Source: Candidatus Micrarchaeota archaeon
GTDB lineage: Archaea > Micrarchaeota > Micrarchaeia > Micrarchaeales > CABMGC01
Direction: 5' to 3'
NCBI GenBank assembly: GCA_027345185.1
Contig: DAHWIK010000044.1
Location: 3,396 to 67,395 of the forward strand
DNA length: 64,000 bases
The notes beneath the pieces are model-generated. The model did not search any database. It was not told the origin of the DNA and saw nothing but the letters and a program-made list of their open reading frames with translations. Positions 3,793-64,000 of this stretch are shown piece after piece. Both the position numbers and the translations under genes were made by a program. Position 1 is the first letter of the stretch, and every line of letters starts with the position of its first letter.

Positions 3793-3821
3793 ACCGGTCG
3801 CACTATAAATTATCTGTTTAA

Positions 3822-4895: not shown

Positions 4896-4956
4896 CTATA
4901 CCGAGAATATATTCGACATACAAAGATTATTAATCTTCTTATGAAAGATTCCTGAC

Positions 4957-5670: not shown

Positions 5671-5692
5671 GAGCGTACCCTCAAACTTAATT

Positions 5693-6181: not shown

Positions 6182-6185
6182 TTGA

Positions 6186-37966: not shown

Positions 37967-38004
37967 ATTGGATCACCAAATACCAAGATATGAAGGCATA
38001 GCCC

Positions 38005-39048
38005 TCATATCATGTCCAAGCCACCATACTTGACCTGCTGTGGTTCGTCGGCGAATTTCCCTACGATGCTTGATCCCTTCACTCCTGTAACTATGGCAAC
38101 TATCTCTAGCTGGCCCTCGTATCCAGGTATGATCCTTGCACCCCACTTTACGTTTGCCTTTGGATCCATCCTCTCGGTTATGATCTCTCCGGCTTTTATC
38201 GCATCTCCAAGGCTCAAGTCAGATGCACCAGATATGTGAATTAGTGCTCCCTTTGCATTCTCGAAGTCAACATCCAGAAGCTTATTCTTTAGGACAGCCT
38301 CAGCTGCAGAACCAACCTTGTCGTTTCCCTTTCCAGTTCCCACAGATATGAAGCCAACGTCTCCGCTTCCCATTATGGACCTTACGTCTGCAAAATCAAT
38401 GTTTATCAGGCTCGGCTGGGTTATTGTCCATACCAATCCTCCTATTGCCTTAGCTAGGATGTCGTCCGCTACAGCGAATGCCTCATTCATAGGCAGGTTG
38501 GGTACAAGCTTTACCAGCCTGTTGTTGTCCAGAAGTATTACACTGTCGCTGAACTTCCTTAGCCTCTGGATTCCGTCCTCTGCCTTTACCTTTCTCACCC
38601 TTTCCAGGTCGAATGGATATGTGACCATTGCAACCACTATCGCGCCCTGCTCCTTTGCAATCTGGGCAATTACCGGTATTGCTCCGGTTCCTGTTCCTCC
38701 TCCCATGCCTGCGCAAAGGAATACAAGCTGTGCTCCGGACAGAACCTCCTCGAGCTGCTGTCTGTCAGCCTCCGCGGCCTTGGCCCCGACTTCAGGATCT
38801 CCTCCTGCTCCGAGCCCCCGGGTCATGCTCTTTCCTATGAGGATCTTCTTTATTCTGTCATCGACTATCTTAAAGTGTGTAACATCAGTGTTGACAGCAA
38901 TGAGTTCCGTGCCCTTTACGCCAACCTTCAGTAATCGGTTTACGGTATTGTTACCTCCGCCTCCTACTCCTATTGTTACTATCTTTATCTGTGGAGCGCC
39001 GCTCGCGCTCTCCTCGCTTCTACTCAAGTCATTTCCGAATTCTACCAT
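38005..39048 (-). CDS. ftsZ: Cell division GTPase FtsZ (paralogue, upstream copy)
   Basis: GVGGGGNNTVNRL, GMGGGTGTGAIP and NIDFADV. Confidence 0.92.
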   Translation of the reverse strand: MVEFGNDLSRSEESASGAPQIKIVTIGVGGGGNNTVNRLLKVGVKGTELIAVNTDVTHFKIVDDRIKKILIGKSMTRGLGAGGDPEVGAKAAEADRQQLEEVLSGAQLVFLCAGMGGGTGTGAIPVIAQIAKEQGAIVVAMVTYPFDLERVRKVKAEDGIQRLRKFSDSVILLDNNRLVKLVPNLPMNEAFAVADDILAKAIGGLVWTITQPSLINIDFADVRSIMGSGDVGFISVGTGKGNDKVGSAAEAVLKNKLLDVDFENAKGALIHISGASDLSLGDAIKAGEIITERMDPKANVKWGARIIPGYEGQLEIVAIVTGVKGSSIVGKFADEPQQVKYGGLDMI

Positions 39049-40742: not shown

Positions 40743-41708
40743 ATGGATGTCTCATTACTGAATAGCGAATTTGCAAACGGCGGCGGAGGTGGGGCAAAGG
40801 GCAGGCACGTAAAAAGGATGGAGGGAAGATTGCTGTATCCATTTTTTGTATTTGTTATTGGAGTGTTCTTGTTTGTCTTTCTGCTGTCCGTTACTGCATT
40901 TGCAATCTTCCTATTGGTCGTGATTGCGGCTTCGGTATATTTTGGGCTTCAAGGATACGGCGAATACCAGCTTTTTGCCAATACGCCGATAGCGAAGATC
41001 GACGGCGCAGCAGACGGGCTCAACGAGATACAGGCAAACGTTTATCCGTACAAGAATCCGGGAATCAATCTTCCCATAGGAGAAGGGAAGTGTGCACTTT
41101 ACGGTCTTGAGCTGCACTACAGGACTGGCGGGAAGAATAGCCAGGATTACCTACTCTCTTCGCATTATTTCAGTTCTGCTTCGCTTCTATTTGACGGAAC
41201 CGGATACCTGTACGGCGACTACAACAGCGCGGAGTTTGAGATGCCTTTCAGAATTTATAAGCTTCAGAAGAAGAAATTTGAGTGGGTGACCAACAGGGAC
41301 AAGATTATCCAGGCTTTTGATGATACAACAGGCATTGACAGGCAGTTGGACATAGGGAAATACGACCAGAATCTGACTCTGGCACCTATGGGCGGTGAGA
41401 AGATCCTCAGGACAAGCGGACAGTATGGCGTGGGAGCAGGACCGGTCGGCTATTACGTAAAGCTGTATTATGTGCCGATAGATAGGCCTTATTTTATAAT
41501 AGGCAACATATCTGACAGTGGAAAGTTGTATAATGAAAAACCACTGAAGATGTTCTCTATTGACCAGGCAACAGGCATATTGGCGATTACTGCAAGGTCA
41601 AAGAAGCAGTTGATATCAAGGCTGAGAAACTACGCCTTCCTGGACATAGCTCTCGCACTCGCATGTTTTATTGCCTTGGTCTGGGTATTCAATCTTGGAC
41701 TGATATAG
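40743..41708 (+). CDS. Membrane protein, GIDE-domain-like (LemA-associated)
   Basis: N-terminal TM helices, then TPIAKIDGAADGLNEIQANV...LPIGEGKCALYGLEL (the GIDE-like pattern pi..i..a.dG.vei.G.v..l.sPlsg..Cv.y), and a C-terminal TM helix. Confidence 0.4.
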   Translation: MDVSLLNSEFANGGGGGAKGRHVKRMEGRLLYPFFVFVIGVFLFVFLLSVTAFAIFLLVVIAASVYFGLQGYGEYQLFANTPIAKIDGAADGLNEIQANVYPYKNPGINLPIGEGKCALYGLELHYRTGGKNSQDYLLSSHYFSSASLLFDGTGYLYGDYNSAEFEMPFRIYKLQKKKFEWVTNRDKIIQAFDDTTGIDRQLDIGKYDQNLTLAPMGGEKILRTSGQYGVGAGPVGYYVKLYYVPIDRPYFIIGNISDSGKLYNEKPLKMFSIDQATGILAITARSKKQLISRLRNYAFLDIALALACFIALVWVFNLGLI

Positions 41709-51190: not shown

Positions 51191-51709
51191 CTATTTGTCT
51201 TTTCCGTTTCCGTTCTTGCTAATCAGCTTGTCTAGCGGAACCTTCTTGCTGTTTCCGCCGAAGTACTGTGTGTTCATGTACGTAATGGCTTTTGGTGTTA
51301 TCTTTATGAAAACTCCGCCATGCTCCTTGACAAAGTGCCCCTCACCGGCTTCTGGCAACCAATTGGAATCTACATTCAGTCTCTTTGTGCGTATAGAGTA
51401 GACGGATTCTATATCTTCGTCTGGAACAAGGCTCGCCTTTCCCTCAATTTGAACGCCTATCTGATGTATGCCCGCTATGGATTGCGGAGTGAATACCGAA
51501 AGCACGACCCTTGGATCTGACTTTATGTTTCTCATGTGTCTAGTGTCTGAAGAAGATACGAAATAAAAGTTAAATTTACTGTCATACGAAAAGTATACTG
51601 GATTTGCCCATACGCCATTTTCATCTACGGTAGCAAGGGTTGAAACTGTAGTCGAGTCCAGGCATTCGGTGAGGTTCTTTTTCCATTCAAAATCTTTGTC
51701 AGCTTTCAT
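51191..51709 (-). CDS. Pyridoxamine 5'-phosphate oxidase-like FMN-binding split-barrel protein
   Basis: LATVDENGVWANPVYFSYD...FYFVSS..TRHMRNI is the typical PNPOx-family N-terminal pattern. Confidence 0.5.
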   Translation of the reverse strand: MKADKDFEWKKNLTECLDSTTVSTLATVDENGVWANPVYFSYDSKFNFYFVSSSDTRHMRNIKSDPRVVLSVFTPQSIAGIHQIGVQIEGKASLVPDEDIESVYSIRTKRLNVDSNWLPEAGEGHFVKEHGGVFIKITPKAITYMNTQYFGGNSKKVPLDKLISKNGNGKDK

Positions 51710-51724
51710 GGCGAATCGCCTTAA

Positions 51725-52504
51725 TCATTTCTTGCTGGATATATTATTATCCTTATCCTTTATTGCACCCATAAGCCCACCCTTTAGTATAAAGGTTTTT
51801 ACATTATATTCGTCCTTCAGCAGCTTTGCGATCTGCGCAGAAACATTTCCGCTATAGCAGGATAGTACCTTCCCCTGAAAATCCTTGAGGCCTTCTGGGC
51901 TCATGTTAGTTATGTCTATTGGATTGACCCTTGTTATCTTTTTTACATCTATTCCGAGCAGGTATGACACGTAATCCGTAGGCTCTACGCCGAGCCATAT
52001 TATACTCGTCTTGTCTTCGGCTATCAGGGACTTTGCAAAGGCGAGGTCTATTTCAGGTGTCTTCTCCTTGTCTAATTCAAGGTATTCCTCAAGAAGGTTG
52101 GAGAACTTCTGAGCATTTTCTATCTTTATCCCCTCGATGTGCCATCCGCCTTCTAGAGACTCTGATTCTCCGCCAGAACCCCTTATCCTTATCTGAATGG
52201 AGGCAAGAATCTTGCCGTTTGAATTTGTAGTGCCCATTATATTGTCGAGCATTACTGTGCTTATTCTGGTTGGGGAGATGATATTGTGGCCGGTATACAG
52301 CCCCCAAAATGAATTGTGTATTATTATAACTCTCTTGTCTGTAAGGACTATGGTGTCTGGAGATATCGATGAGAGGTAGCTCTGCCTAAGCTTCATCAGT
52401 GCGGTCTCGTTTTTGTGCAGGAACCTCTCTACATCTTGCAAGGCATCACTAATGATAATTGCGTGTGAAACTATTAATATATTCCCCGCACTGTAGTTGG
52501 ACAT
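51725..52504 (-). CDS. Bacterial-PH (YdbT-like) domain fused to a rhodanese-like domain
   Basis: DTIVLTDKRVIIIHNSFWGLY is the bPH part. The C-terminal KVLSCYSGNVSAQIAKLL is a rhodanese active-site loop with the Cys retained and the Arg replaced by Val. Confidence 0.45.
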   Translation of the reverse strand: MSNYSAGNILIVSHAIIISDALQDVERFLHKNETALMKLRQSYLSSISPDTIVLTDKRVIIIHNSFWGLYTGHNIISPTRISTVMLDNIMGTTNSNGKILASIQIRIRGSGGESESLEGGWHIEGIKIENAQKFSNLLEEYLELDKEKTPEIDLAFAKSLIAEDKTSIIWLGVEPTDYVSYLLGIDVKKITRVNPIDITNMSPEGLKDFQGKVLSCYSGNVSAQIAKLLKDEYNVKTFILKGGLMGAIKDKDNNISSKK

Positions 52505-52513
52505 ATACAGAAG

Positions 52514-53056
52514 TCAATTTAGATCGCGCTTGAAGTCCTTCTCAATCCTGCTTACCTTAGGCTTTATTACAAATGTGCAGTATCCTTGGTATGGATTCTT
52601 CTCGAAATATTTTTGGTGGTACTCTTCCGCAGGATAGAACTTGTCCAGCTTCACCAATTCGGTCACTATAGGTTGACCGTACTCCGGCTGCTCCTTCTTT
52701 ATGAACTCCTTTGCGATCTCCTTTTGGCTTTCCGTTGTGTATAGTATTATTGATCTGTACTGCGTCCCAAAGTCAGCACCCTGCCTGTTGAGTGAGGTAG
52801 GGTCGTGCATCTTGAAGAATATTTCTAATATCTTTTCTAGAGAAACTGATTTTGGGTCGTATTCCACCAGAGTTACCTCGGCGTGGCCCGTATCCCCGCT
52901 GCATACCTGCTCATATGTCGGATTCTTGGTATGCCCTCCAGCGTATCCTGGTGTTGTCTTGACAACGCCCTTAAGCATATCAAATATCGCCTGAGTGCAC
53001 CAGAAGCATCCTCCGCCCAGAAGTATCCTCTCATTTTTGCTTTGCATCCTAGTCAC
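52514..53056 (-). CDS. msrA: Peptide methionine (S)-sulfoxide reductase MsrA
   Basis: Active-site GGGCFWC, GYAGG, and HDPTSLNRQG. Confidence 0.9.
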   Translation of the reverse strand: MTRMQSKNERILLGGGCFWCTQAIFDMLKGVVKTTPGYAGGHTKNPTYEQVCSGDTGHAEVTLVEYDPKSVSLEKILEIFFKMHDPTSLNRQGADFGTQYRSIILYTTESQKEIAKEFIKKEQPEYGQPIVTELVKLDKFYPAEEYHQKYFEKNPYQGYCTFVIKPKVSRIEKDFKRDLN

Positions 53057-53417
53057 CCTTGTCTGGTATGAATTTTAAGGATATTGAATTTACGCAATGC
53101 CTCGTGTTCTTAGGCGTGAATCCCTCTCCTAGGAAGACATGCCCAAGGTGGGCGCCGCATCTTGCGCACTCTATCTCGGTGCGCATGCCGTCGATGTCTG
53201 GAACCCTCTTCACCGCACCATGAATCTCCTGGTCGAAGCTTGGCCATCCGCATCTTGCATCGAACTTGTCCCTTGATCTATATAATGGAGTCTCGCATCT
53301 CCTGCACACATATATGCCTGGCTTGAAGAAGTTGTCGTACTCCCCTGTGAAAGGCATCTCCGTGCCCCTGTGGACAATCACGCGCTCCTCTTCTGGAGTT
53401 AGCTTGTTCAGCTTCAT
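53049..53417 (-). CDS. msrB: Peptide methionine (R)-sulfoxide reductase MsrB
   Basis: Zinc CxxC pairs (CRRCETPL, CARCGAHLGHVF), CGWPSF, and a catalytic region ending RHCVNS. Start trimmed to MKLNKLTPEE because the longer ORF overlaps the upstream gene. Confidence 0.88.
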   Translation of the reverse strand: MKLNKLTPEEERVIVHRGTEMPFTGEYDNFFKPGIYVCRRCETPLYRSRDKFDARCGWPSFDQEIHGAVKRVPDIDGMRTEIECARCGAHLGHVFLGEGFTPKNTRHCVNSISLKFIPDKGD

Positions 53418-53434
53418 GGATTCAACATCTTGAT

Positions 53435-54154
53435 TTATGTCGGAACTGCGCCGAATACGCGGCCTATCAGGTATCCGGCAAACCCTGCAGTAAGGCCAAT
53501 CAGAAGCATCTCCATCCCGCTGCGCCACAGCGAACCGAGGGTAACTTTTGCCTCGTAATATCCCACTATGAAAAGCACAATTGCGCTGAGTATAACAGAT
53601 GCGATTGCAGCAGTTGCTATGTTACCTGAAAAGAATATGAACGGTATGAGTGGTATTACTGAACCAAGTGCGGTTGCAATAAGAACTGTCACAAAGCTTT
53701 TCGCTGGTGCTGACTTCTCGACAGGTGCAAGCTTCAGTTCGAATGACATCATGAACTCGAGCCATGCCTTCTCGTTGGAGCAGATCAAATCTGTCATTGA
53801 CTTTAGCTTCTTGCCCTTGTATCCCCACTCTACTAGAACATCGACGACCTCCTGCCTTTCCACTTTTGGCACTTCCCTCATCTCCCTTTTCTCAGTCTCT
53901 ACCTCCTTTAGATAGTGCTTAAACCTAGATTTAGTTGAGGTGTATGCTACTGCGGCCATAGAGATTGTTTCTGCGCCGAGGGCCGCAAGAGCCGCAACAA
54001 AGATAAGTCGTACGTCAGAAGTAGCGGCGGAAACTCCCAGAATGATTCCAAGCACATTCACCAGACCATCCTGCCCGCCAAGTATTACGTCAGAAAGCAT
54101 AGTGGGTCTGGAGTGCTGCTCGCTGTGCTCATTTCTAATATTCAGGGCAGTCAT
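53435..54154 (-). CDS. VIT1/CCC1 family iron/manganese transporter
   Basis: LSDVILGGQDGLVNVLGIILGVSAA, a central cytoplasmic helical E-rich domain, and five TM helices. Confidence 0.75.
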   Translation of the reverse strand: MTALNIRNEHSEQHSRPTMLSDVILGGQDGLVNVLGIILGVSAATSDVRLIFVAALAALGAETISMAAVAYTSTKSRFKHYLKEVETEKREMREVPKVERQEVVDVLVEWGYKGKKLKSMTDLICSNEKAWLEFMMSFELKLAPVEKSAPAKSFVTVLIATALGSVIPLIPFIFFSGNIATAAIASVILSAIVLFIVGYYEAKVTLGSLWRSGMEMLLIGLTAGFAGYLIGRVFGAVPT

Positions 54155-54238: not shown

Positions 54239-54958
54239 CTACGTTTCGTTTGCAGCTATTCCGGCAAGAACAGTATAATTTACTGGGAATCCTGGATTTG
54301 AGAATGCCTGCACAAAGACTGCATCCCTGCCCTTCCAGCCAGTTATTGACTGGAAGTTTCCTGTGCTATTTTCATAGAGCTGATAGGTATAGCTTAAACC
54401 GTTGACCGTACCGTACAGCGTCTGCGGTGGGGAGCTGTAAAACTGGGATACGGATGAAACGATTGACGAAGACAGACTTGACGCGTTATACGCATACATT
54501 ACCAAAAAATATATTGATTGGTTTTTGGTCAGGTTTTGGCCCTGCACCATTGTGACCCAACCCTCGGTGACATTGCCTGCGGCGTAAGGAGTGACATTAT
54601 ACATATATGTTATGTTTATTGGCGATGAGGCATTGAATAGGTCAGATGTAGAATAAATTGAAACCTGACCCAACAGGATTTGTGACTGTGAAGCGCTCAG
54701 ATAGATAGGCGTGCCTCCTGTTGAGCCTAGGCTGGGCACCACTGCAGTTGTCGTTCCCAATACGGATGGCCCTGTTCCGGCGCTTGGCTGTAAGACAAAT
54801 ATTAACACTAGAGCTATTGCAATAAGAAGCACAACTACAATGACTAATAGCGTCTTTGTATTGCTTTGCTTGCTTCCTGCGGCATTGGACGAGGTGTCCT
54901 GATTTGCAGGGTTGACTGGGCTCTGGCTGGTTGCTGAACTGTTATTATTTGCTGGCAT
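54239..54958 (-). CDS. Membrane-anchored extracellular protein, S/T/N-rich with many N-glycosylation sequons
   Basis: Low-complexity N-terminus, a single TM helix (LLVIVVVLLIAIALVLIFVL), then a domain with about 10 NxS/T sequons. Confidence 0.4.
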   Translation of the reverse strand: MPANNNSSATSQSPVNPANQDTSSNAAGSKQSNTKTLLVIVVVLLIAIALVLIFVLQPSAGTGPSVLGTTTAVVPSLGSTGGTPIYLSASQSQILLGQVSIYSTSDLFNASSPINITYMYNVTPYAAGNVTEGWVTMVQGQNLTKNQSIYFLVMYAYNASSLSSSIVSSVSQFYSSPPQTLYGTVNGLSYTYQLYENSTGNFQSITGWKGRDAVFVQAFSNPGFPVNYTVLAGIAANET

Positions 54959-55105
54959 GACTACCTCCGCGTTCTATTGCATGTATGGCATGCGACTTTT
55001 TAAAGTTTGCTGTGCATTTCGTTTTTTTATCTCTTGTTATGCCCGAAATGGATTGAAGAGAAAGTAGTATATAGTAGAAAATACCTAATATGTATTAGTG
55101 GAAGC

Positions 55106-55684
55106 ATGGCTGAAACAGAGATTGATGGTGTTCAAGCAAAGGTAAACAAGCTCCTGGAGCTTGCAAAGTATGCTGCGTCAGTCAGTCCTGCGGATACGGA
55201 TCTGTATTCAAAGTCGCTTATTATTGATTTCAGGTATTATGATGGCTCGCCGCATTCCGGTCCTGTTAAATTATACCCAAAGGACATTTTGAAGATGACA
55301 GATTCTGAACTTAGGGAGGTGATTACGTCCCAGGGCAAGCCGGCTGCAATAAAATACCTGCAGAGCCTTAACCTGCCATTGGTCAACCCTGCATGGCCAT
55401 TGACCAAATCAAAAGAGAAGGGACACGTGATTAATACTTTCAAAAAAATATACAAGTATTTGGAACCTGACCCTAAAATTGAAAAAAAAGATGAAAAACC
55501 ACAAGAACCTAGTTCAAATTATGCCTACAGGTGTTCAAGGTGCGGAAAAGCGCCCCTTACAGGACCGGTGCTCTACTGCGACGGATGCAGCCAGTACATG
55601 TGCTATGAGTGCGGCATTCCGAGCGGATACATGGTCTGGAACTGCCCAAACTGCGCAATAGAGACCCAGCGTGTGGTGCTGTAG
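55106..55684 (+). CDS. Hypothetical protein with C-terminal double zinc-ribbon (4 x CxxC)
   Basis: CSRCGKAPLTGPVLYCDGCSQYMCYECGIPSGYMVWNCPNC. Start moved to the ATG at 55106; the ORF-track TTG extension is hydrophobic junk. Confidence 0.45.
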   Translation: MAETEIDGVQAKVNKLLELAKYAASVSPADTDLYSKSLIIDFRYYDGSPHSGPVKLYPKDILKMTDSELREVITSQGKPAAIKYLQSLNLPLVNPAWPLTKSKEKGHVINTFKKIYKYLEPDPKIEKKDEKPQEPSSNYAYRCSRCGKAPLTGPVLYCDGCSQYMCYECGIPSGYMVWNCPNCAIETQRVVL

Positions 55685-55750: not shown

Positions 55751-55951
55751 ATGTGCCAGGCTCCAGTAGGCAAGGTAATAGGACTTGATAGTGACAGCAT
55801 AACCGTAGAGTACAATGGGAAAGATAGGGTGCTAAAGAAGTCAAAGTTCCTTGACGCTAAGATAGGCGAGTACGTGCTGTTTTCGCTGGACATAGCGATA
55901 GACAAGGTGGACAAGGAAGAAGCTGAAATGATATTGAAGGGCATGAAATGA
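55751..55951 (+). CDS. hypC: Hydrogenase maturation chaperone HypC
   Basis: 66 aa. N-terminal MCQAPVGKVI (canonical MC[LI]xxPG[KQ]V), and GEYVLFSLDIAIDKVDKEEAE. Confidence 0.8.
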   Translation: MCQAPVGKVIGLDSDSITVEYNGKDRVLKKSKFLDAKIGEYVLFSLDIAIDKVDKEEAEMILKGMK

Positions 55952-56460
55952 ACGCTGAAGACAGGCTGCTATTTCTAAGATATGCGCTCCCGTGCGCTGG
56001 CACTCTTGTAAGAAGAGGCAAGGTCTCGCAAGACTATGTAAACAGTCTGATAAGGCTGGTCTCTGAAGACAAGTTGCCCCCTGAAGGAACGGAAAAGATG
56101 TTTATAGTGGCTAGCACCATGTGCAGCAAGATAGCCAATAGGCTGGGAAAGGCTGAGATAGATCAAGACGTAATAAGGACTTATTTCCTTTTTGAGCACG
56201 GTGAAGTTGTGGATGATAGGTTTGCACTCATGAAGGACTTTAATCCTGTTGACTGCAAGACATATCCGGGCAAAGTGATAGACGTGGAGGCCACTTCCGC
56301 AGTTGTAGAAACAAATCTGGGAAGCAAGGCATACAGTATAATTTTTGCAAAAGGAGTGAAGCCTGGAAACAGTGTCGTTGTGCATTATGATTACATAATA
56401 GAAAAGATAAGCGAGGATGCAGTCAAAAGGATGAACGTACTAGGGCAGGGTAAGCAATGA
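55948..56460 (+). CDS. HypC-like domain protein with about 100-aa N-terminal extension
   Basis: Residues about 102-165, DCKTYPGKVIDVEATSAVVETNLGSKAY...GNSVVVHYDYIIEKISEDA, reproduce the HypC pattern including the Cys-x3-PGKV box. That Cys is residue 103 rather than residue 2. ATGA overlap with hypC. Confidence 0.6.
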   Translation: MNAEDRLLFLRYALPCAGTLVRRGKVSQDYVNSLIRLVSEDKLPPEGTEKMFIVASTMCSKIANRLGKAEIDQDVIRTYFLFEHGEVVDDRFALMKDFNPVDCKTYPGKVIDVEATSAVVETNLGSKAYSIIFAKGVKPGNSVVVHYDYIIEKISEDAVKRMNVLGQGKQ

Positions 56461-57368
56461 ATAGGGAGAAAAAGGGGATAATCCTTGCTATACTGGCTGC
56501 AATTGTCAGTGGTATCTCGATTCCTGCAAACAAGTTCTTCATTGTAAACTTGGACCCGTCAGTCTTTACCGCTGTCCGATCAGTAATAATAGGGATTGGC
56601 TTCCTGGCCATATCCGCATATCCTGCAGTTAAGGAGCATAAGCCGTTCAGTAAGGCGCCTTGGAAGTACCTTATAGCCATAGCCGTGATTGGAGGTGCAG
56701 CTGCATTCTGGCTATACTTCACAGGCCTGCAGTTGACAACTGCCGGAAGGGCTGCAGTCCTCTACCACACCCTTCTTTCTGGATTCACTGTTATTCTCGC
56801 CTTCGTGTTTTTGCGCGAAAAGATATCAAGGAAGATGGTTTACGCTATCATCGCTATGCTTGTTGGAACCCTGATCCTATACATTTCACAGGTCCCGCAG
56901 TCACAGCTGTGGGCCAACCCTAACCTAGGAGATTTGATGATAATATCCGCATCGATCCTCTGGTCGATTGAATACGTGATTTCCAGGAAGGTGATGAAGA
57001 TGGGTGAGACGAATTTCGTCGTTTCATTCGCCAGGATGTTCTTCGGAGGACTTATACTGTTTGGCATTGTGATATTGTCGGGTGATTTGGGAGCGCTGTT
57101 CGTCCTGACAATACAGCAATGGATAAACATATTGATATCCACGGTATTGCTGTTTGCAGACGTCCTGTTCACGTACTGGAGCATACGGTACATAAACGTC
57201 TCAAAAGTCGCCACGCTGCTGCTTCTGGCTCCGATTATATCGCTGGTCGGAGGAGCATTGCTACTCGGTGAACCGACTCCGCTGCTGCAGTTGGTAGGGT
57301 CGGCTATAATGCTTGCCAGTGCATATTTTGTCATAGGTGTTAGGAGTGAATCGCAGAAAAAGACATAG
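56457..57368 (+). CDS. EamA/DMT-superfamily permease
   Basis: 303 aa with 10 TM helices arranged as two EamA repeats. ATGA overlap with the upstream gene, and an overlapping or abutting start of the downstream protease gene. Confidence 0.75.
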   Translation: MNREKKGIILAILAAIVSGISIPANKFFIVNLDPSVFTAVRSVIIGIGFLAISAYPAVKEHKPFSKAPWKYLIAIAVIGGAAAFWLYFTGLQLTTAGRAAVLYHTLLSGFTVILAFVFLREKISRKMVYAIIAMLVGTLILYISQVPQSQLWANPNLGDLMIISASILWSIEYVISRKVMKMGETNFVVSFARMFFGGLILFGIVILSGDLGALFVLTIQQWINILISTVLLFADVLFTYWSIRYINVSKVATLLLLAPIISLVGGALLLGEPTPLLQLVGSAIMLASAYFVIGVRSESQKKT

Positions 57369-57744
57369 GATATTGGTGTTTGGCAACCCGATGGTCAGTA
57401 GAGACAGCCTGCCTCTAAGGATAATTACCAGACTTGCCGAGAGACTGCCTGATTTCGATTTCATAGAGTTCGATCCTAATGAGAATCTGGAGAAGGAGGG
57501 CAGGGAACTTAACATAATAGATACTGTTGAAGGTGCAAAAGAGGTAGTGCTAATAACTGACATTGACAGAATACAGACGCAAAAGGTATACTCTATGCAC
57601 GATTTCGATCTTGGCCACAGTCTGAAGATCCTGGATAAGCTTGGCTATATAGACAGTGTCAGGATATTCGGTGTCCCGATGAAGATCAGTCAAAAAGATG
57701 CACTTGACCAGCTTGTTGCACTGATCAGCGCCACTTTACCTTGA
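57337..57744 (+). CDS. Hydrogenase maturation endopeptidase (HycI/HybD family)
   Basis: ILVFGNPMVSRDSLPLRI (canonical vlGiGN....DDg.G), a later D and a H (SMHDFDLGH). Start uncertain: GTG 57337/57346 or TTG 57373. Confidence 0.65.
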   Translation: MLGVNRRKRHRILVFGNPMVSRDSLPLRIITRLAERLPDFDFIEFDPNENLEKEGRELNIIDTVEGAKEVVLITDIDRIQTQKVYSMHDFDLGHSLKILDKLGYIDSVRIFGVPMKISQKDALDQLVALISATLP

Positions 57745-59041
57745 GGAAATGGCTTGCGCAGCTCATGCACGGGTCATAAGCCCTTATTAGTTTCTCTATC
57801 TCGAACTCTATCTGGCTCTTTGGTTTATCCATATTGGCATTTACAAGCTCCAGAACACTCTTCTCCATGCATACCTGATTCTGCTGCGTAGGCACTATTA
57901 TGTTGCCGTATTTTACCTTGCCGTCATTGCCTATAGAAAGCATGTAGTATAGCGTGCCGCGCGGTGCCTCAATCATTCCTATTCCCTGACCTTCCTTTAT
58001 GACCACCGAATCGGAATGCTCTTCCTTGAAGTCGTTGGATTCGAGCAGCTCTATGGATGCATCTATGCAATGCAGGACCTCTATTGCCTGTGCAAGATTA
58101 TTATGGAATATGTTCTTTGATGGAAATGCCGATGTGTATTTTGACGCATCCGCTTTTGTCTCACCATGCAGATTGTCCTTGTTCAGGTTCATTCTTGAAA
58201 TTGCACCGACCATGAATTCCTGGCCTTCAAACTTGTAGCCCACAGCCTGCGAGTAGGGCATTATCACAGCATTGAGATAGTCCCAGTATCTGTCCTCAAG
58301 GATGCATGACCCGCGCGAGTCGATGATCTTGCCTTTCGAGAATGAATAGTCATCTGTAACCAGCGAAACGAAGTTTGTATCCCTTTCCAGGTTCAAACCG
58401 CACGAATAGAATATCTCCATGAACTCTATTGCATATCCCCTTACTGATTTCAATTCCTTGACCAGCTTGTCTACTTCGGCCTTGTCAGGAATATGAGAAA
58501 ATTTTCCTACCTCTGCAAACGTTGCGTGCACTGCCCTTCCCGCTATCACTTTTGACAGGTTATTTCCTGTGCTTTTTATTGCAAACGCCTTCCTTATCAT
58601 ATCGTCCTGGGATTTATCAAAGTCCAGTATTGAATCTTTCCCGAAAAGGTCTGGGAGGCAGAACAGGTACAGGTGCAGCGCGTGGTCCCTTATCATCATG
58701 CCATACAATGATAGCTTCCTGAGCATAAGGGTCTGGTCGGTCGGCTCGAAGCCTATTGCATTTTCAACAGCTTCTGAACAGCAGGTCAGGTGGGCTATGC
58801 TGCAAGTCCCGCAAATTCTTGAGGTCATCAGAGGCAGGGAGATTGCAGGTTTTCCGCGTATCGCCTGCGTATAAAACCTCTTGCTTTCTGTTATCTTCAG
58901 CTTTACATAGTCCACTTTTCCATTCTTGATTCGGATGTCAAGATTGCTATGTCCTTCAGTCTTGCTGATATTGTTTATACGGATATGGCCTCCGCCACCG
59001 GGTTCATATGCTGAATCTTCAAACCTATGCACTTGATACAC
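57725..59041 (-). CDS. [NiFe]-hydrogenase large subunit (group 3-like motifs)
   Basis: L1 box RICGTCSIAH and L2 box DPCMSCASH, followed by the short cleavable tail FLKVKWR. 438 aa. Confidence 0.88.
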   Translation of the reverse strand: MYQVHRFEDSAYEPGGGGHIRINNISKTEGHSNLDIRIKNGKVDYVKLKITESKRFYTQAIRGKPAISLPLMTSRICGTCSIAHLTCCSEAVENAIGFEPTDQTLMLRKLSLYGMMIRDHALHLYLFCLPDLFGKDSILDFDKSQDDMIRKAFAIKSTGNNLSKVIAGRAVHATFAEVGKFSHIPDKAEVDKLVKELKSVRGYAIEFMEIFYSCGLNLERDTNFVSLVTDDYSFSKGKIIDSRGSCILEDRYWDYLNAVIMPYSQAVGYKFEGQEFMVGAISRMNLNKDNLHGETKADASKYTSAFPSKNIFHNNLAQAIEVLHCIDASIELLESNDFKEEHSDSVVIKEGQGIGMIEAPRGTLYYMLSIGNDGKVKYGNIIVPTQQNQVCMEKSVLELVNANMDKPKSQIEFEIEKLIRAYDPCMSCASHFLKVKWR

Positions 59042-59525
59042 CGAATTCTTTAATATATTTGTTCAGGACAGCAAGGAATGCAGACTCGTCCATAGGGCAT
59101 CCCTGCACCTCGTCGTCCACTGGCACTATGTCCTTGACCGATCTTACGTTTGGAGTCTGCTTGAATCGTATTATAAGGAACTCTATCTCCTTCTTTAGTT
59201 CGTCGTTAAAGGTATTTCTTTGGGCTGCGGGCATGCCATTTATTGCACATGAACCTATCATGACCAGCTTCTTGGAGTTTTTCCTTATAGTGCGCAGCTT
59301 TTTGGCGTCCTGCTCCGTAGTTATGGCGCCCTCAACGAAGGCGACATCTATTCCGCTGAGCTTGTTTCTTTTCTTGAGCACCCGTGCATGCCTGATATCA
59401 ATCATGTCCTTCCACTTAAAGAAGTTCTCGTTCATCAGCTCTATCCAGACCATCGTGCTGTCCTCACAGCAGGTAAAGGAGAACCATCCGATCTTCAGCT
59501 TTTTGGATTTCATGGTGATACCCAT
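59025..59525 (-). CDS. [NiFe]-hydrogenase small subunit, minimal single-cluster form
   Basis: 166 aa of the NuoB/Oxidored_q6 type. It has exactly four Cys: FTCCEDS, GSCAINGMP and QGCPMDE. It overlaps the large-subunit start by 17 nt. Confidence 0.75.
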   Translation of the reverse strand: MGITMKSKKLKIGWFSFTCCEDSTMVWIELMNENFFKWKDMIDIRHARVLKKRNKLSGIDVAFVEGAITTEQDAKKLRTIRKNSKKLVMIGSCAINGMPAAQRNTFNDELKKEIEFLIIRFKQTPNVRSVKDIVPVDDEVQGCPMDESAFLAVLNKYIKEFGVSSA

Positions 59526-59683: not shown

Positions 59684-59914
59684 TTACTGATTCATAGTCA
59701 ACTGCCTTCATGTGCAAAGGTCTTGCACCATCTTCGGAGTCGTTGGCTTCCTGCACGTCCTGCAGTAGTTGGACTTTTTCAAGTCGACCATTTTTATTAC
59801 GGCTTTGGGATTAATATACGTTGCAGTGGTCTTGTATGCCTGGCCTGAAAGAGATGGTTTTTACTTCCACATCAAGAAACCCGGAAATTTTTGATCAGCG
59901 TTTATTTAGCAACA

Positions 59915-59924
59915 TTTTAAATTT
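59915..59924 (+). promoter_or_regulatory. Putative TATA box for a leaderless ChdC/heme operon transcript
   Basis: TTTTAAATTT is centred about 25 nt upstream of the ATG at 59944. Confidence 0.35.
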
Positions 59925-59943
59925 AGCGTTTGCTAATATTATC

Positions 59944-60585
59944 ATGGGATTTTTCATATCTAACGTCTTAGCATACAAGTTCAGACCCAGTTGGTGGGAA
60001 CTTGAAAAGGATAGAAGGAAAATGATACTGGATGAGCTTAGGGAGACGCTTAAAGGAGTGGGAGGGGGCGGCGGGAAGGTGCTTAAAGCCGAGATCTACT
60101 CGTCATTGAGGTACGACTGCAGCATAATCTTCTGGCTGCTCTTGAATAAACCGGAAGAGCTTCCGGTTGCAAGGGCGAAACTAGAGAAGATCCTTGGCAG
60201 GCACGCTTCGATAAAGCACGGCTTCCTCTCTGTATACGAGCAGAAGAAGGAGAAAGGCGACGAAAAACGCGAGTATTTCGTAGCGTACCCGATAAGCAAG
60301 GATCCGGAGTGGTACCTTCTTGATAAAGTCGAGCGCTCCGAGATAATGGCGGAGCACATAAAAATTGCGACAGAGAACCCGAATAACAAAGGGATAAATT
60401 CTTATACAACGATGTCATTTGGTATAGACGATAATGAATTCGTCGTCCTGTACGAGCTGAACTCGATTGAAGAGTGGGTGCTTGTCACGCAGAGCTTGAG
60501 GGAGGCAAAGGCAAGGAAGTGGATGACTAACGAGAAGCCCATACTGGTCGGGAGAAAGGACAATGTTGAGGCTTTTTTGGCATGA
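59944..60585 (+). CDS. Chlorite dismutase family protein, coproheme decarboxylase (ChdC/HemQ)-like
   Basis: ERSEIMAEHIKIA (proximal His region), TTMSFGIDDNEFVVLYELNSIEEW and LREAKARKW match the Cld/HemQ C-terminal domain. The start was chosen at MGFFISNVLAYKF by analogy with HemQ N-termini. Confidence 0.7.
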   Translation: MGFFISNVLAYKFRPSWWELEKDRRKMILDELRETLKGVGGGGGKVLKAEIYSSLRYDCSIIFWLLLNKPEELPVARAKLEKILGRHASIKHGFLSVYEQKKEKGDEKREYFVAYPISKDPEWYLLDKVERSEIMAEHIKIATENPNNKGINSYTTMSFGIDDNEFVVLYELNSIEEWVLVTQSLREAKARKWMTNEKPILVGRKDNVEAFLA

Positions 60586-60598
60586 TCATGGTGGTAAA

Positions 60599-60889
60599 AT
60601 GATAAACGTAGGGATGTATTACAATGTAAAGCAGGGGCATGAAGCCGAGTTTGAGGGGACATTCGCCGGAGTGGTGGAGAAACTGAAAGGCGCTGGAGTA
60701 GGAATAAAGGACGCTAAGCTGTACAGGGAGATAGGAAAGAGCGAGTACATGATATACACAGAATGGGAGAGCCTTGAAGCCTTCAAGGGATTCATACAGA
60801 GCAGGGCATTCGGTGAGACCGTTGCCAATGGAAAGTCCATTATAGAGGGCAGGCCGAGGCACAAGGTATTCGCAGAGATGGATGAGTAG
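60599..60889 (+). CDS. Antibiotic-biosynthesis-monooxygenase (ABM/Dabb) domain protein
   Basis: 96 aa. INVGMYYNVKQGHEAEFE...YMIYTEWESLEAFKGF is the typical ABM ferredoxin-like pattern. A GGTGG sequence lies upstream of the ATG at 60599. Confidence 0.65.
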   Translation: MINVGMYYNVKQGHEAEFEGTFAGVVEKLKGAGVGIKDAKLYREIGKSEYMIYTEWESLEAFKGFIQSRAFGETVANGKSIIEGRPRHKVFAEMDE

Positions 60890-60903
60890 TTTAGGCTGGT
60901 GCA

Positions 60904-61785
60904 ATGAAGGGAGTGTTGCTGATGGCATATGGAGCTCCGAATTCCATAGAAGGGATAAAGGACTATTATACGGATATAAGGGGAGGAGTAGCGCCATCAG
61001 TCGAACACATTGGTGATCTTGTCAAGAGGTACGAGGCCATAGGAGGTGTGTCGCCATTATACAAGATAACTGTAGACCAGGCAGAAGGCCTGCAGAAGGC
61101 CCTTGGTTCGCGTTCGGTGGTCTATTTTGGCATGAAGCATTCACGGCCTTTTATAAAGGATGCTGTTGGAAAAAGCGCGGATGAAGGCGTAGATGAGCTT
61201 CTTTGCATAGCAATAGCTCCGCATTACTCCATAACAGGAACAGGATCTTACATAAGCAGGGTAAAGGATGCAAACACGGCGTTGGGCAACAGAATCCGCA
61301 CAGTGTTTGTAAATTCATGGCACCTTAACAGAAACCTGATAGAATTCTGGAGCAGAAGCATACTCAAGGCTTCTGTAGGGATGAAGAAGCCGTTCATCGT
61401 ATTTTCAGCGCACAGCCTGCCTGAGAAAGCTGAAAGCACAGGCCCCTATAAGGGCCAGCTTCTGGAAACTTCTGCAGCGGTTGCAGAAAAAGCAGGGATA
61501 ACGGACTGGGGGCTTGCATTCCAGAGCCAGAGCAGCAGGGGAGAAAAATGGTACGGACCCACCATACCTGAACTTATAGAGGCCAATATGGAGGAAGACA
61601 GATCGTTTGTCATCGCACCGATAGGATTCGTTTCTGACAACCTTGAGATACTTTATGACATAGACATTGTCTGCAGAAGATGGGCAGAGGATAAAAAGAT
61701 AGTGATGAATCGTGCGGATATGCCGAATAACTCTGCGCTGCTCATAGCGGCGCTTGACGATATTGCAAAGGATAATGGATTATGA
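60904..61785 (+). CDS. hemH: Ferrochelatase (short soluble type; HemH/CpfC)
   Basis: GVLLMAYGAPNS, SPLYKIT and FSAHSLPEK, with the C-terminal E/H acidic region absent or short. 293 aa. Confidence 0.85.
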   Translation: MKGVLLMAYGAPNSIEGIKDYYTDIRGGVAPSVEHIGDLVKRYEAIGGVSPLYKITVDQAEGLQKALGSRSVVYFGMKHSRPFIKDAVGKSADEGVDELLCIAIAPHYSITGTGSYISRVKDANTALGNRIRTVFVNSWHLNRNLIEFWSRSILKASVGMKKPFIVFSAHSLPEKAESTGPYKGQLLETSAAVAEKAGITDWGLAFQSQSSRGEKWYGPTIPELIEANMEEDRSFVIAPIGFVSDNLEILYDIDIVCRRWAEDKKIVMNRADMPNNSALLIAALDDIAKDNGL

Positions 61786-61819
61786 GCTGGCTTGCACAAG
61801 ACGTATTAAGTTGGCATTT

Positions 61820-63493
61820 ATGGAAAAAGTAGTGATTGGAGCAAGGGGAAGCAGGCTGAGCATTGCGCAGACGCAGATAGTCGTTGACAGGATAAAGAGG
61901 TCCTTTCCCAAACTTGCAGTGGAAATCCGAGTCATAAAGACTTACGGAGACATGAAGAAGGGGATGAAGCTTGACAGCATGGAGCAGAAGGGTGTTTTCG
62001 TAAAGGACATAGACAGGCAGCTTGCCGATGGGCAGATAGACCTTGCAGTGCACAGCCTGAAGGACATACCCACAAAACTGCCCGATTCACTGAAGATAGG
62101 CGCAATAGTGGAGAGGTCTGATCCGAGGGACGTACTGATATCAAGGGATAACAGCAAGCTAAGGGACCTCAAGAGGAATGCCAAGATAGGGACGAGCAGC
62201 CTGAGGAGGATGGGGCAGCTGCTTGCGTTTAGAAAAGACCTGAAGGTTGTGGAGATGAGGGGCAATGTTGACAAAAGGGTAGCAAAGCTTGACAGCGGAG
62301 ATTACGACGCGATAGTGCTTGCCGCTGCAGGAATAAAAAGGCTAGGATTGGAGAAGAGAATATCCGAATATCTGCCATTTGGCGTGATGCTTCCTGCGCC
62401 GGGGCAGGGAGCCCTTGCAGTAGAGATCAGAAGCGGTGACAGGCGTGCCGAGGAGATAGCGCGCAGAATAGACGATGCAAAAGTAAGGGCTTCTGTTGAA
62501 GCCGAGAGGATAGCGCTTTCGCGGATTGGAGGTGGCTGCAACGCCCTTCTTGGGGTATTGGCTGGGGTCAGGGGCGACAAGCTGAATATGTCCGCTGCGA
62601 TAACCAGCAGGGACGGGAAAAGAAAACGCAGATACACTCAAAGGGGACTTCTCGGTTTTCCAGAGGAGGCGGGGTTGATGCTGGCCGAGAAGATACTGAT
62701 GAGCGATGTTGCTGATATTATAGGAGACAAAAGACCATATTCTCCGCTCAGTGGGAAGGTCGTACTGGTGACCAGGGAGGAGGCAGAGGGAGAAGGCATA
62801 TGCCAGATGCTTCTTGAACGAGGGGCCGTACCTGTATATTTTCCTACAATAAAGACCGTGGATATCGACAGCCGGGATTCCGGGAAGAAATTAGATAGGC
62901 TGAACAAGTATGACGTTGTGGTAATTACGAGCAGGCGCGGAGCGTCCAGGCTTCTTGGCCTGCTAAAATATAAAGGCATGAGGATGGGTCTGGCAGGCGC
63001 AAGGGTGGTTGCAATAGGAACTGAAACGAAAAGGTATCTCGAGGGCAGCGGAGTGCCGGTGGATTATGTGCCGGATGACTCATATTCCAGGGAGATAGTC
63101 TGCGGCCTGAAAGGGATAAAGGGAAGGAGGATCCTTGTAATAAATTCTGCAAGGGCAGGAAACGGACTGGTTGAGGGATTGGCCAGCAAGGGCGGAAAGG
63201 TAGACAGGATGACCCCGTACACGGTGACGAAGCCGGATACAAGCGGGCTCAGAAGGAAGGCGATATTGGGATATAAGTTCGACTTCGTGACCTTCGCAAG
63301 CCCGTCTGCAGTTGAAGGGTTGATTGCAATCCTTGGGGAGCGCAATGCAAAAAAGGTTCTCTCAAAGAGCAAGGTCGTATGCATAGGAGATACAACGTCA
63401 AAAAAATGCTCCGAAGAAGGAATAAGGGTTCATGCCGTATCGGAAGTGCATTCCCTTTCCGGGATTGTAGACTGCATGGAAAGATCAGGATGA
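61820..63493 (+). CDS. hemC: Fusion protein: hydroxymethylbilane synthase (HemC) + uroporphyrinogen-III synthase (HemD)
   Basis: The N-terminal ~300 aa carry IGARGSRLSIAQT, DLAVHSLKD, RGNVDKRV and the cofactor Cys in GGCNALLG. The C-terminal ~250 aa (GKVVLVTREEAEG...VVITSRRGA...FASPSAVEG) are HemD-like. Start set at the ATG at 61820. Confidence 0.8.
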   Translation: MEKVVIGARGSRLSIAQTQIVVDRIKRSFPKLAVEIRVIKTYGDMKKGMKLDSMEQKGVFVKDIDRQLADGQIDLAVHSLKDIPTKLPDSLKIGAIVERSDPRDVLISRDNSKLRDLKRNAKIGTSSLRRMGQLLAFRKDLKVVEMRGNVDKRVAKLDSGDYDAIVLAAAGIKRLGLEKRISEYLPFGVMLPAPGQGALAVEIRSGDRRAEEIARRIDDAKVRASVEAERIALSRIGGGCNALLGVLAGVRGDKLNMSAAITSRDGKRKRRYTQRGLLGFPEEAGLMLAEKILMSDVADIIGDKRPYSPLSGKVVLVTREEAEGEGICQMLLERGAVPVYFPTIKTVDIDSRDSGKKLDRLNKYDVVVITSRRGASRLLGLLKYKGMRMGLAGARVVAIGTETKRYLEGSGVPVDYVPDDSYSREIVCGLKGIKGRRILVINSARAGNGLVEGLASKGGKVDRMTPYTVTKPDTSGLRRKAILGYKFDFVTFASPSAVEGLIAILGERNAKKVLSKSKVVCIGDTTSKKCSEEGIRVHAVSEVHSLSGIVDCMERSG

Positions 63494-64000
63494 TTTCAAT
63501 GAGGAACGACCTGTTTTTGCGTGCCTGTAGAAAAAAGGATGTTGAGCATACGCCCATATGGCTCATGAGGCAGGCAGGAAGGTATATTCCAGAATATAGG
63601 AGGATAAGAGAGACTTACAGCGTGATGGAGATATGCAGGGATCCGGAGGTCTCATCCAACGTGTCTGCAATGCCGATAGAGATGTTCGGTATGGACGCTG
63701 CGATAATATTCGAGGATTTGATGTTGCCGCTTGAGCCTGCTGGAATAAAGTTCGATCTCGTTGACAAGATTGGGCCGGTGGTCAAGGATCCGATAAGGAA
63801 TGCCTCTGATGTGGACAGGATAAGGGAATATGATGTGAGTGAAGTTGGTTTTGTGGCTGACACAATAAAACTGCTGAAGGGCAAGGTGAATGTTCCGGTT
63901 ATAGGATTTGCAGGAGGACCGTTCACTATTTCATGCTACCTGATTGACGGTATGCGCTCAAAGGGATTTGAAAAAACGAGGCAGATGATAAAATCAGAGC
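63490..64000 (+). CDS. hemE: Uroporphyrinogen decarboxylase (HemE/UroD), N-terminal 170 codons; runs off the right edge
   Basis: Not in the ORF track because it has no stop. Manual translation: MISMRNDLFLRACRKKDVEHTPIWLMRQAGRYIPEYRR..., containing the signature PxWxMRQAGRYxPEY. ATGA overlap with the hemC-D stop. Confidence 0.88.
   Translation, partial: MISMRNDLFLRACRKKDVEHTPIWLMRQAGRYIPEYRRIRETYSVMEICRDPEVSSNVSAMPIEMFGMDAAIIFEDLMLPLEPAGIKFDLVDKIGPVVKDPIRNASDVDRIREYDVSEVGFVADTIKLLKGKVNVPVIGFAGGPFTISCYLIDGMRSKGFEKTRQMIKSE

Follow-up and report, generated by a model that had tools for sequence, protein, structure and literature searches.

A putative coproporphyrin-dependent heme operon with an unfused ChdC-ABM gene pair in an uncultured micrarchaeon

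Results

A compact heme operon at the end of the window

The last 4 kb of a 64,000-nucleotide stretch of a Candidatus Micrarchaeota genome (contig DAHWIK010000044.1; the whole stretch that was analyzed is hereafter called the window) carry five closely spaced genes on the plus strand. They encode a ChdC-like protein of the chlorite-dismutase (Cld) family, a small ABM-domain protein, a ferrochelatase, a HemC-HemD fusion and HemE (Table 1). An earlier note on this DNA, made from the sequence alone, had described a tight plus-strand operon of the ChdC-like protein, ferrochelatase, HemCD and HemE. Pfam and TIGR profiles confirmed all of these genes and their coordinates, but the note had overlooked the ABM gene, the feature that most sets this operon apart. 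The intergenic gaps are 13, 14 and 34 nt, followed by a 4-nt overlap (ATGA) of the HemCD stop and the HemE start, and because of this spacing we treat the five genes as one operon. The TATA-like box in front of them suggests a putative archaeal promoter of a leaderless operon transcript, since its spacing from the ChdC start codon fits the -26/-27 that is usual for archaeal TATA boxes.

Contigs of two independent public assemblies, L001 (Logan, 5.9 kb) and L094 (ENA, 19.7 kb), match the window with 0 mismatches across 4362 and 4057 nt, respectively; the operon is identical in all three assemblies. The extension past position 64000 that the earlier note had proposed therefore succeeded in part: it completed HemE and added, directly 3' of it, a gene for HemA (glutamyl-tRNA reductase, GluTR; 314 aa; TIGR01035, 217 bits with a cut-off of 210), but both contigs stop 47-157 nt past hemA (L094 14559-14715). 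A repeat or strain variation may lie at this break, and no obvious repeat was seen in the last 200 nt before it. Together, the window and the public contigs cover ~66 kb of this genome. The automatic gene calls in ENA use longer starts for ChdC (249 aa; 59821/59836) and for the ABM protein (108 aa; 60563), but alignments with homologues back the shorter starts at 59944 and 60599, which we use throughout.

Table 1 Features of the window discussed in the text. The operon comes first, followed by features outside it.
Feature	Position	Strand	Size	Evidence and remarks
A/T-rich TATA-like box, ATTTTAAATTTA	59914..59925	+		~25 nt 5' of the ChdC ATG; read from the sequence
ChdC-like (chlorite-dismutase-family) protein	59944-60585	+	213 aa	PF06778, E 1.3e-36
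ABM-domain protein	60599-60889	+	96 aa	PF03992, E 9e-11
Ferrochelatase, CpfC-like	60904-61785	+	293 aa	PF00762, E 1.8e-67; TIGR00109, 192 bits (cut-off 125)
HemC-HemD fusion	61820-63493	+	557 aa	PF01379 + PF03900 + PF02602; TIGR00212, 323 bits (cut-off 164)
HemE	63490-64000	+	first 170 codons	PF01208, E 2e-56; truncated by the window end
[NiFe]-hydrogenase small subunit	59025-59525	-		divergent from the heme operon
[NiFe]-hydrogenase large subunit	57725-59041	-		divergent from the heme operon
Cytochrome bd subunit I	25768-27060	-		PF01654, E 4e-101; context, outside the operon
Cytochrome bd subunit II	24830-25756	-		PF02322, E 5e-15; context, outside the operon
ORFs without a Pfam match	18312-19001, 40743-41708, 51725-52504, 54239-54958, 55007-55684		225-321 aa	

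The ChdC-like protein belongs to an archaeal clade and keeps the catalytic residues

The first gene of the operon encodes a putative coproheme decarboxylase that falls, by sequence, in the archaeal clade of Thermoplasma acidophilum TA0507. Its best match among solved structures is TA0507 itself (3DTZ, E 4e-40), followed by the actinobacterial ChdCs and then by the chlorite dismutases, and the family profile gave the same order (96 bits for actinobacterial ChdC and 68 bits for chlorite dismutases). An alignment of 26 archaeal ChdC homologues showed that Y115, K119, W123-Y124 and H138 are invariant. In C. diphtheriae ChdC (CdChdC), the aligned counterpart of Y115 is the catalytic Tyr135 and that of H138 is the proximal His158. 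The ChdC signature is thus retained in the form of the proximal His (H138), the catalytic Tyr (Y115) and a basic residue four positions further on (K119). The earlier note had named the catalytic Tyr and the heme-binding His as the residues to be checked in such an alignment, and both are present. In residues 145-159 (NPNNKGINSYTTMSF) there is no Arg where the chlorite dismutases carry their distal Arg, a position that we take to lie ~13 residues past the proximal His, as in NdCld (H160/R173) and DaCld (H170/R183).

All 64 ChdC homologues found were archaeal or unlabelled. A close uncultured group is 52-66% identical to the window protein, and the Sulfolobales and Thermoplasmatales proteins are 37-45% identical. 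The hem operon starts with chdC in three lineages (the window, L082-84 and L175/176). In T. volcanium, a Cld-like gene lies beside ftsZ and thiI, away from the hem genes.

The ferrochelatase is of the coproporphyrin type

The assignment of the third gene product as a coproporphyrin-type, CpfC-like ferrochelatase is well supported by sequence comparison. It scored 200 bits against the solved CpfCs of Firmicutes (Listeria monocytogenes and Bacillus subtilis) and 73 bits against human PpfC, and it is 40.5% identical to L. monocytogenes CpfC (LmCpfC). Eight of the nine LmCpfC residues that we mapped are kept (Y12, R29, R45, Y46, S53, Y124, H182 and E263); Y9, H170 and E248 of the window protein align with the proximal Tyr12, the distal His182 and Glu263. 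Propionates 2 and 4 set coproporphyrin apart from protoporphyrin, and in LmCpfC they are contacted by Y124 (propionate 2) and by T14, Y46 and S53 (propionate 4)(PMC9794026). Three of these four contacts are retained in the window protein as Y116 (Y124 of LmCpfC), Y43 (Y46) and S50 (S53). The protein is short and has only two cysteines, and therefore has no [2Fe-2S] site.

The best 120 homologues of the ferrochelatase were either unlabelled or labelled Nitrososphaerota or Thermoproteota. In a neighbor-joining tree of 86 CpfC sequences, the clade of the window protein and a Nitrososphaerota-labelled clade stand together, apart from the bacterial-type hemE-cpfC-hemY loci.

HemE, HemCD and HemA

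Full-length HemE (346 aa, taken from the identical contig L001) passed the uroporphyrinogen decarboxylase model TIGR01464 (371.6 bits, cut-off 303) and failed the MtaA/CmuA methyltransferase model (91 bits, cut-off 235), which identifies it, as far as profile scores can, as a uroporphyrinogen decarboxylase rather than a methyltransferase with the URO-D fold. The set of HemE, a CpfC-type ferrochelatase and a ChdC-like protein, which the earlier note had called coproporphyrin-dependent, is thus borne out by residue conservation and profile scores. The pairwise identity of HemE is tied at 44% between a Nitrososphaerota protein and a Chloroflexi protein, and a single scan of genome contigs with HemE returned bacterial loci only, at ≤44% identity. 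On the bacterial origin that the earlier note had wished to test by phylogeny, the CpfC tree sets the window apart from the bacterial-type loci, and the pairwise identity of HemE leans to neither side.

HemC and HemD are fused (525-557 aa) in the window, in L082 (11863-13536) and in L175 (9921-11498), and are encoded by separate genes in the Nitrososphaerota operon L088. The GluTR encoded behind HemE (L001 4897-5841) matches model positions 3-325 of 416 and has no C-terminal dimerization domain; the L088 GluTR, with 435 aa, has this domain, which is absent from the 314-aa protein of the window lineage.

The ABM protein is related to the ABM domain of PitA

The product of the second gene most likely belongs to the OdsN/PitA-ABM subfamily, and its relatives make it a putative heme-binding partner of ChdC. 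It matched positions 549-636 of NF007124, a model named 'heme-binding protein', at E 6e-11. This model stands for a family of Cld+ABM fusions, which we checked with the haloarchaeal-type fusion protein P0251 (760 bits); P0251 passes the Firmicute ChdC model NF008913 as well. Among 1.84 billion representative sequences, 104 relatives of the ABM protein were found at E≤1e-3, Cld+ABM fusions included, and those that carried a label came from Ca. Marsarchaeota, Ca. Micrarchaeaceae, Ca. Parvarchaeota, Acidiplasma and Saccharolobus. Alignment columns of the subfamily average 63% identity, and His88, part of a G-x-P-R-H motif, is invariant. The AlphaFold2 model shows a ferredoxin-like fold (pLDDT 81). 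In a positional comparison through the MhuD alignment, the Asn/Trp/His triad of IsdG-type enzymes was not kept, its places being taken by Y7, F65 and T74/V75, and Y7, F65 and T74 are themselves invariant in the subfamily. Because the triad is not conserved, the ABM protein does not look like a standard heme degrader.

ChdC and the ABM protein are not one polypeptide in the window; their genes are separated by the first of the short gaps. Their linkage is nevertheless seen in two forms, as gene fusion and as gene neighborhood. A different neighborhood was found in a metagenome-assembled genome (MAG) of Saccharolobus (L091 1999-7291), where an ABM homologue 53% identical to the window protein follows the genes for CbsA (EB_dh) and CbsB, an unassigned ORF and a cytochrome b gene. 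The published order of the Sulfolobus cluster is cbsAB-soxLN-odsN (PMC6335949), and from this gene order only we infer that the Saccharolobus homologue, at the odsN position, is OdsN. Given the homology to the PitA ABM domain and the homologue at the odsN position, we consider a role beside ChdC in heme handling more likely than one as a replacement oxidase. In related lineages, TnpB/Cas12f-like and OrfB_IS605 fragments lie near the operon or the ABM gene (L175 13261-13506; L092 1981-2679 and 10393-11342), so mobile elements appear to be active there.

The window and related operons lack a recognizable gene for coproporphyrinogen III oxidation

As the earlier note had remarked, the CgoX/HemY step is not visible in the window. 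Pfam scans of 50 window ORFs not belonging to the operon, a set that took in all those of 300 aa or more, detected no PF01593 protein of the HemY-type CgoX family, and no DUF1444 (CgoN) domain either, with no sequence query used for CgoN. Searches by tblastn with 30 HemY-family queries (E≤1e-3) were also negative, both for the window and for a further 20 loci of archaeal or archaeal-like character; these 20 took in all loci with the related five-gene operon that had been fetched by then. The same 50 ORFs contained no AhbA/B or AhbC/D gene. The sole radical-SAM protein of the window combines UPF0004 and Radical_SAM domains, an architecture that we take to be MiaB-like and not that of AhbC or AhbD.

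The five-gene operon recurs, ABM gene and HemCD fusion included, in archaeal contexts in L082-84 (65% ChdC identity) and L175/176 (55%). Neither the window nor the other archaeal loci contain homologues of the ORFs that flank the L175 operon. A different arrangement, hemA-hemC-hemD-hemB-chdC-hemL-hemE-cpfC, again lacking cgoX, was found in a Nitrososphaerota MAG (L088 998-8906). The cluster is thus devoid of cgoX in four archaeal operon types (the window, L082-84, L175/176 and L088). Two bacterial loci (L111 3392-12162 and L154 245-8979) have essentially the hem order of L088 and end with a HemY-type cgoX, and this shared order hints at an inter-domain transfer of the operon. The first ORF of L111 and L154 (~670 aa) seems to be a fusion of two early hem genes, and L111 also has an SprA-like gene.

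We surveyed the neighborhood of cpfC by clustering 881 ORFs from 85 loci. A HemY-family gene was present in 30 of the 85, most of them of bacterial type, and usually stood directly after cpfC. No conserved unknown gene emerged that could replace CgoX, the HemY family being the only recurrent partner that is not a hem gene. One such gene lies in L097, a 7.2-kb metagenome contig, where an Amino_oxidase/HemY-family gene is found two genes 3' of cpfC (3418-7100). The CpfC of L097 is 68% identical to the Nitrososphaerota-labelled protein P0146 and groups with Nitrososphaerota-labelled proteins, so the archaea of this CpfC clade are not uniformly without HemY, and some of them probably have CgoX. 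A radical-SAM gene adjoins cpfC in L101 (2149-2649) and stands between the HemY-type gene and hemE in L105 (4954-6078); these may be AhbD/HemN-like anaerobic alternatives.

The operon appears native to an archaeal genome

The window carries clear archaeal markers, namely Hel308 with the archaeal domain 4, an ATP-dependent DNA ligase, a geranylgeranyl-reductase-like protein and two FtsZ proteins, along with genes for SMC, a [NiFe]-hydrogenase and the SUF system. The junction between the operon and the archaeal hydrogenase genes is identical in the three assemblies. In GC content, GC content at third codon positions (GC3), purine content and codon usage, most values of the operon genes fall inside ~1.5 standard deviations (sd) of the 55 other window genes, and only the 96-aa ABM gene (purine) and HemCD (GC) deviate by more than 2 sd. 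In tetranucleotide signature the operon correlates with the remainder of the window at 0.88, compared with -0.07, 0.11 and 0.40 for three bacterial loci, and the tetranucleotide signature of the window is closest to that of L092, labelled 'Marsarchaeota' (r 0.90), followed by L082/83 (r 0.86). The last 4 kb show a stronger purine skew than the window average.

The contig is truly archaeal and non-chimeric. The earlier note was right in calling the segment otherwise archaeal; its own alternative, a bacterial or chimeric contig, does not agree with the archaeal genes around the operon and the identical junction. It had also offered horizontal acquisition of the bacterial pathway as an explanation. 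As a recent event this found no support: the ChdC homologues found and the best 120 CpfC homologues are archaeal or unlabelled, the operon is kept in lineages down to 55% ChdC identity, and its native codon usage gives no indication of recent bacterial acquisition. An ancient inter-domain transfer is neither shown nor excluded. The transfer of a single block from one bacterial donor does not fit, because ChdC resembles the actinobacterial type and CpfC the Firmicute type.

Discussion

We propose, with a probability of about 0.75, that chdC-abm-cpfC-hemCD-hemE(-hemA) is a native heme b cluster of coproporphyrin-dependent logic in an uncultured aerobic or microaerobic archaeon. On this proposal, HemA would start the C5 route, with HemL and HemB encoded elsewhere, and the HemC-HemD fusion would produce uroporphyrinogen III, which HemE would decarboxylate to coproporphyrinogen III. 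The oxidation to coproporphyrin III might be carried out by an unlinked CgoX or an unknown oxidase, or might occur by autoxidation. The CpfC-type ferrochelatase would then insert Fe2+ to give coproheme, and the ChdC-like protein, with H2O2, would decarboxylate propionates 2 and 4 to give heme b, with the radical formed at Tyr115 and the proximal ligand supplied by His138. The ABM protein, which we regard as the probable unfused equivalent of the ABM domain of haloarchaeal PitA, would bind heme or coproheme, take or shield the product of ChdC and hand it to apocytochromes such as cytochrome bd. A consumer of heme b/d, cytochrome bd, is encoded on the same contig as the hem operon; both of its subunits were confirmed in the region (24.8-27.1 kb) where the earlier note had placed it.

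Several points weigh against this proposal. The route has a hole, because no gene for the oxidation of coproporphyrinogen III is present in the window or the three related operons, and the negative result for the Ahb genes applies to the window only, not to the whole genome. The ChdC-like protein is below the cut-offs of both the actinobacterial model NF042928 (74.8 versus 235 bits) and the Firmicute model NF008913 (31.4 versus 253 bits). It also lacks the actinobacterial distal His118, the equivalent loop being deleted in the window subclade, and in our alignments no distal base, either His (His118 of the actinobacterial type) or Gln (Gln187 of the Firmicute type), was identified. The closest structure, 3DTZ of TA0507, is handled as 'TaChdC' in a review, which shows it as an apo-structure only and has the ChdC role as well described only for clades 1, 2 and 4 (PMC7611857). 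In the ferrochelatase, T14 of LmCpfC, one of the propionate 4 contacts, is replaced by A11. As for the ABM protein, the fold search was non-specific, with LsrG, SnoaB, TT1380 and MhuD scoring about equally; its homologues in Acidiplasma and L092 are away from heme genes; and the Nitrososphaerota operon L088 has no ABM gene.

The coproporphyrin-type pathway is best known from Firmicutes and Actinobacteria. The window cluster is like it in that HemE, a CpfC-type ferrochelatase and a ChdC-family protein are clustered with early hem genes, and in that its CpfC largely keeps the contacts to propionates 2, 4, 6 and 7. It differs in having no CgoX, in the ABM gene between chdC and cpfC and in its archaeal host, and its ChdC forms a separate archaeal clade that scores below the bacterial cut-offs and shows no distal His or Gln.

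The premise of the earlier note that archaea generally lack HemE and the late enzymes was overstated. For T. acidophilum, T. volcanium and Picrophilus torridus, hemE and hemH were reported in 2010 in the absence of hemF/N, hemG/Y and ahb genes, and the route was called unclear (Storbeck et al. 2010, PMC3004389). HemC, HemE and HemH are listed among the heme enzymes of DPANN groups including Micrarchaeota (PMC8407392), and the heme route was again called unclear in 2017 for Cuniculiplasma and its ARMAN partner (PMC5498576). The window has the same three late genes as the Thermoplasmatales (hemE, hemH and TA0507/3DTZ), the same missing oxidase and the same ChdC clade. In contrast to the Thermoplasmatales, its genes form one operon with hemCD, hemA and the ABM gene, whereas the Cld-like gene of T. 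volcanium stands apart; moreover, the window ChdC lacks a loop of 11 residues and shares only ~40% identity with the Thermoplasma proteins. With regard to the undescribed variant that the earlier note had considered, novelty is weaker than it supposed: the further archaeal lineage with the gene set, the compact operon form and the unfused ChdC-ABM pairing are new, but the gene set, including its missing oxidase, has been on record for Thermoplasmatales since 2010 (PMC3004389).

The pairing of ChdC with an ABM protein resembles PitA of Haloferax volcanii, which consists of a ChdC domain, a His-rich linker and an ABM domain. Haloferax, which has no uroD, cgoX or cpfC, depends on PitA for its aerobic heme supply, and the ABM domain of PitA has been proposed to hold the heme product (PMC5746218). 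The window ABM protein aligns with the ABM part of NF007124 and has the C-terminal G-x-P-R-H motif in common with PitA. PitA, however, is a fused protein whose ChdC domain is Firmicute-like and passes NF008913, whereas the window has separate genes and a ChdC of the archaeal clade; Haloferax also differs in making coproheme via AhbABC, without HemE, CgoX and CpfC. The likeness to OdsN of the Sulfolobus cbsAB-soxLN-odsN cluster lies in the homologue at the odsN position, which points to a link with b-type cytochromes, although the neighbors of the window ABM gene are heme synthesis genes and not cytochrome genes. With IsdG, MhuD and HmoB, the ABM protein shares the fold and weak sequence matches (E 0.1-0.5), and JGI labels its relatives 'heme-degrading monooxygenase HmoA'. 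It departs from them in having the invariant Tyr7, Phe65 and Thr74 in place of the Asn/Trp/His triad, and heme degradation by this protein is, judged from these residues, unlikely.

How the oxidation step is filled can be read in other ways. The pathway may be canonical, with a HemY-type CgoX (or CgoN) encoded elsewhere in the genome, a possibility that we take seriously but consider somewhat unlikely. It gains from the HemY-family gene of L097, whose CpfC groups with Nitrososphaerota, and from the small part of the genome that was seen (~66 kb, every assembly ending just past hemA). It is harder to reconcile with the complete genomes of T. acidophilum, T. volcanium and P. torridus, which have no recognizable hemY or hemG (PMC3004389), and with the four archaeal operon types without cgoX in the cluster, as against the 30 mostly bacterial-type loci with HemY. 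We are more doubtful about a bolder version of our own proposal, in which the archaeal hemE-cpfC-chdC set would be a distinct CgoX-independent coproporphyrin pathway with an obligatory OdsN/PitA-type ABM protein, acting either as a cofactor-free coproporphyrinogen oxidase that supplies H2O2 or as a heme b chaperone that couples ChdC to cytochrome assembly. That the ABM protein is itself the missing enzyme, a cofactor-independent and O2-dependent coproporphyrinogen III oxidase releasing H2O2 for ChdC, seems to us very improbable. Its gene does stand between chdC and cpfC in three cgoX-less operon lineages, cofactor-free oxygenases such as SnoaB are among its structural matches, and the unconserved IsdG triad separates it from standard heme degraders. 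On the other hand, the same subfamily is fused to ChdC in haloarchaea, where coproheme comes from siroheme and no coproporphyrinogen step exists (PMC5746218), and in Saccharolobus, of a lineage with the Ahb pathway (PMC3004389), the gene sits in a cytochrome b operon. It is also absent from the cgoX-less Nitrososphaerota hem operon, and the closest named families are heme-binding or heme-degrading. These points disfavor an oxidase and leave the ABM protein as a likely heme-handling partner of ChdC within the native heme b cluster that we propose.

Other doubts concern the last step and the origin of the genes. The ChdC-like protein could be a Cld-like heme protein with another role, coproheme being finished by a radical-SAM AhbD encoded elsewhere; we consider this improbable. 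The failed equivalog cut-offs and the missing distal base speak for it, as do the occurrence of the archaeal clade alone and away from hem genes (T. volcanium and L085), its presence in Sulfolobales, most of which have Ahb genes (PMC3004389), and the radical-SAM genes near cpfC in L101 and L105. Yet none of the 26 aligned archaeal homologues departs from the catalytic Tyr, the Lys or the proximal His, three lineages begin their hem operon with this gene, and the only radical-SAM protein of the window does not have the AhbC/AhbD architecture. Moreover, the coexistence of ChdC with Ahb genes has a precedent in Haloferax, where ChdC works beside them (PMC5746218, PMC8305020). Least probable of all, and close to negligible in our view, is that the operon is a recent bacterial insertion or that the contig is chimeric or bacterial. 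The best-known occurrences of the pathway type in Firmicutes and Actinobacteria, the equal similarity of HemE to Chloroflexi and Nitrososphaerota proteins and the purine skew of the last 4 kb could be taken that way, but the hydrogenase junction shared by three assemblies, the composition and codon usage of the operon, the archaeal origin of the closest ChdC, ABM and CpfC homologues and the mixture of an actinobacterial-type ChdC with a Firmicute-type CpfC all argue against it.

A native coproporphyrin-type cluster would not overturn the current picture; it refines the view that archaea use the Ahb route by one more exceptional lineage. Its value lies rather in its form, since the whole presumed route is contained in one compact, conserved operon of five genes, six with hemA, that consistently lacks CgoX and consistently carries the ABM protein that haloarchaea fuse to ChdC. 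It thereby offers a small clonable unit for asking whether the archaeal ChdC clade is a real decarboxylase and what replaces CgoX, and it gives a first functional lead for the OdsN/PitA-ABM family.

Other genes in the window

Five window ORFs of 225-321 aa had no Pfam match at E≤1e-3 or 1e-4 (Table 1), nor a homologue in the other archaeal loci fetched, except in L094, which overlaps the window. Tandem FtsZ paralogues are encoded on the minus strand at 36947-39048. A compact [NiFe]-hydrogenase lies directly 5' of the heme operon in divergent orientation (region 55948-59525), adjoined by HypC-like genes and an EamA-type transporter, the latter according to the annotation of L094. Near the operon there is also a group of redox and iron genes (51191-54154) encoding a PNPOx-like FMN protein, MsrA, MsrB and a VIT1 iron transporter, and a peroxiredoxin is encoded at a greater distance (17772-18260); this gene cluster and the peroxiredoxin fit an O2-exposed lifestyle.

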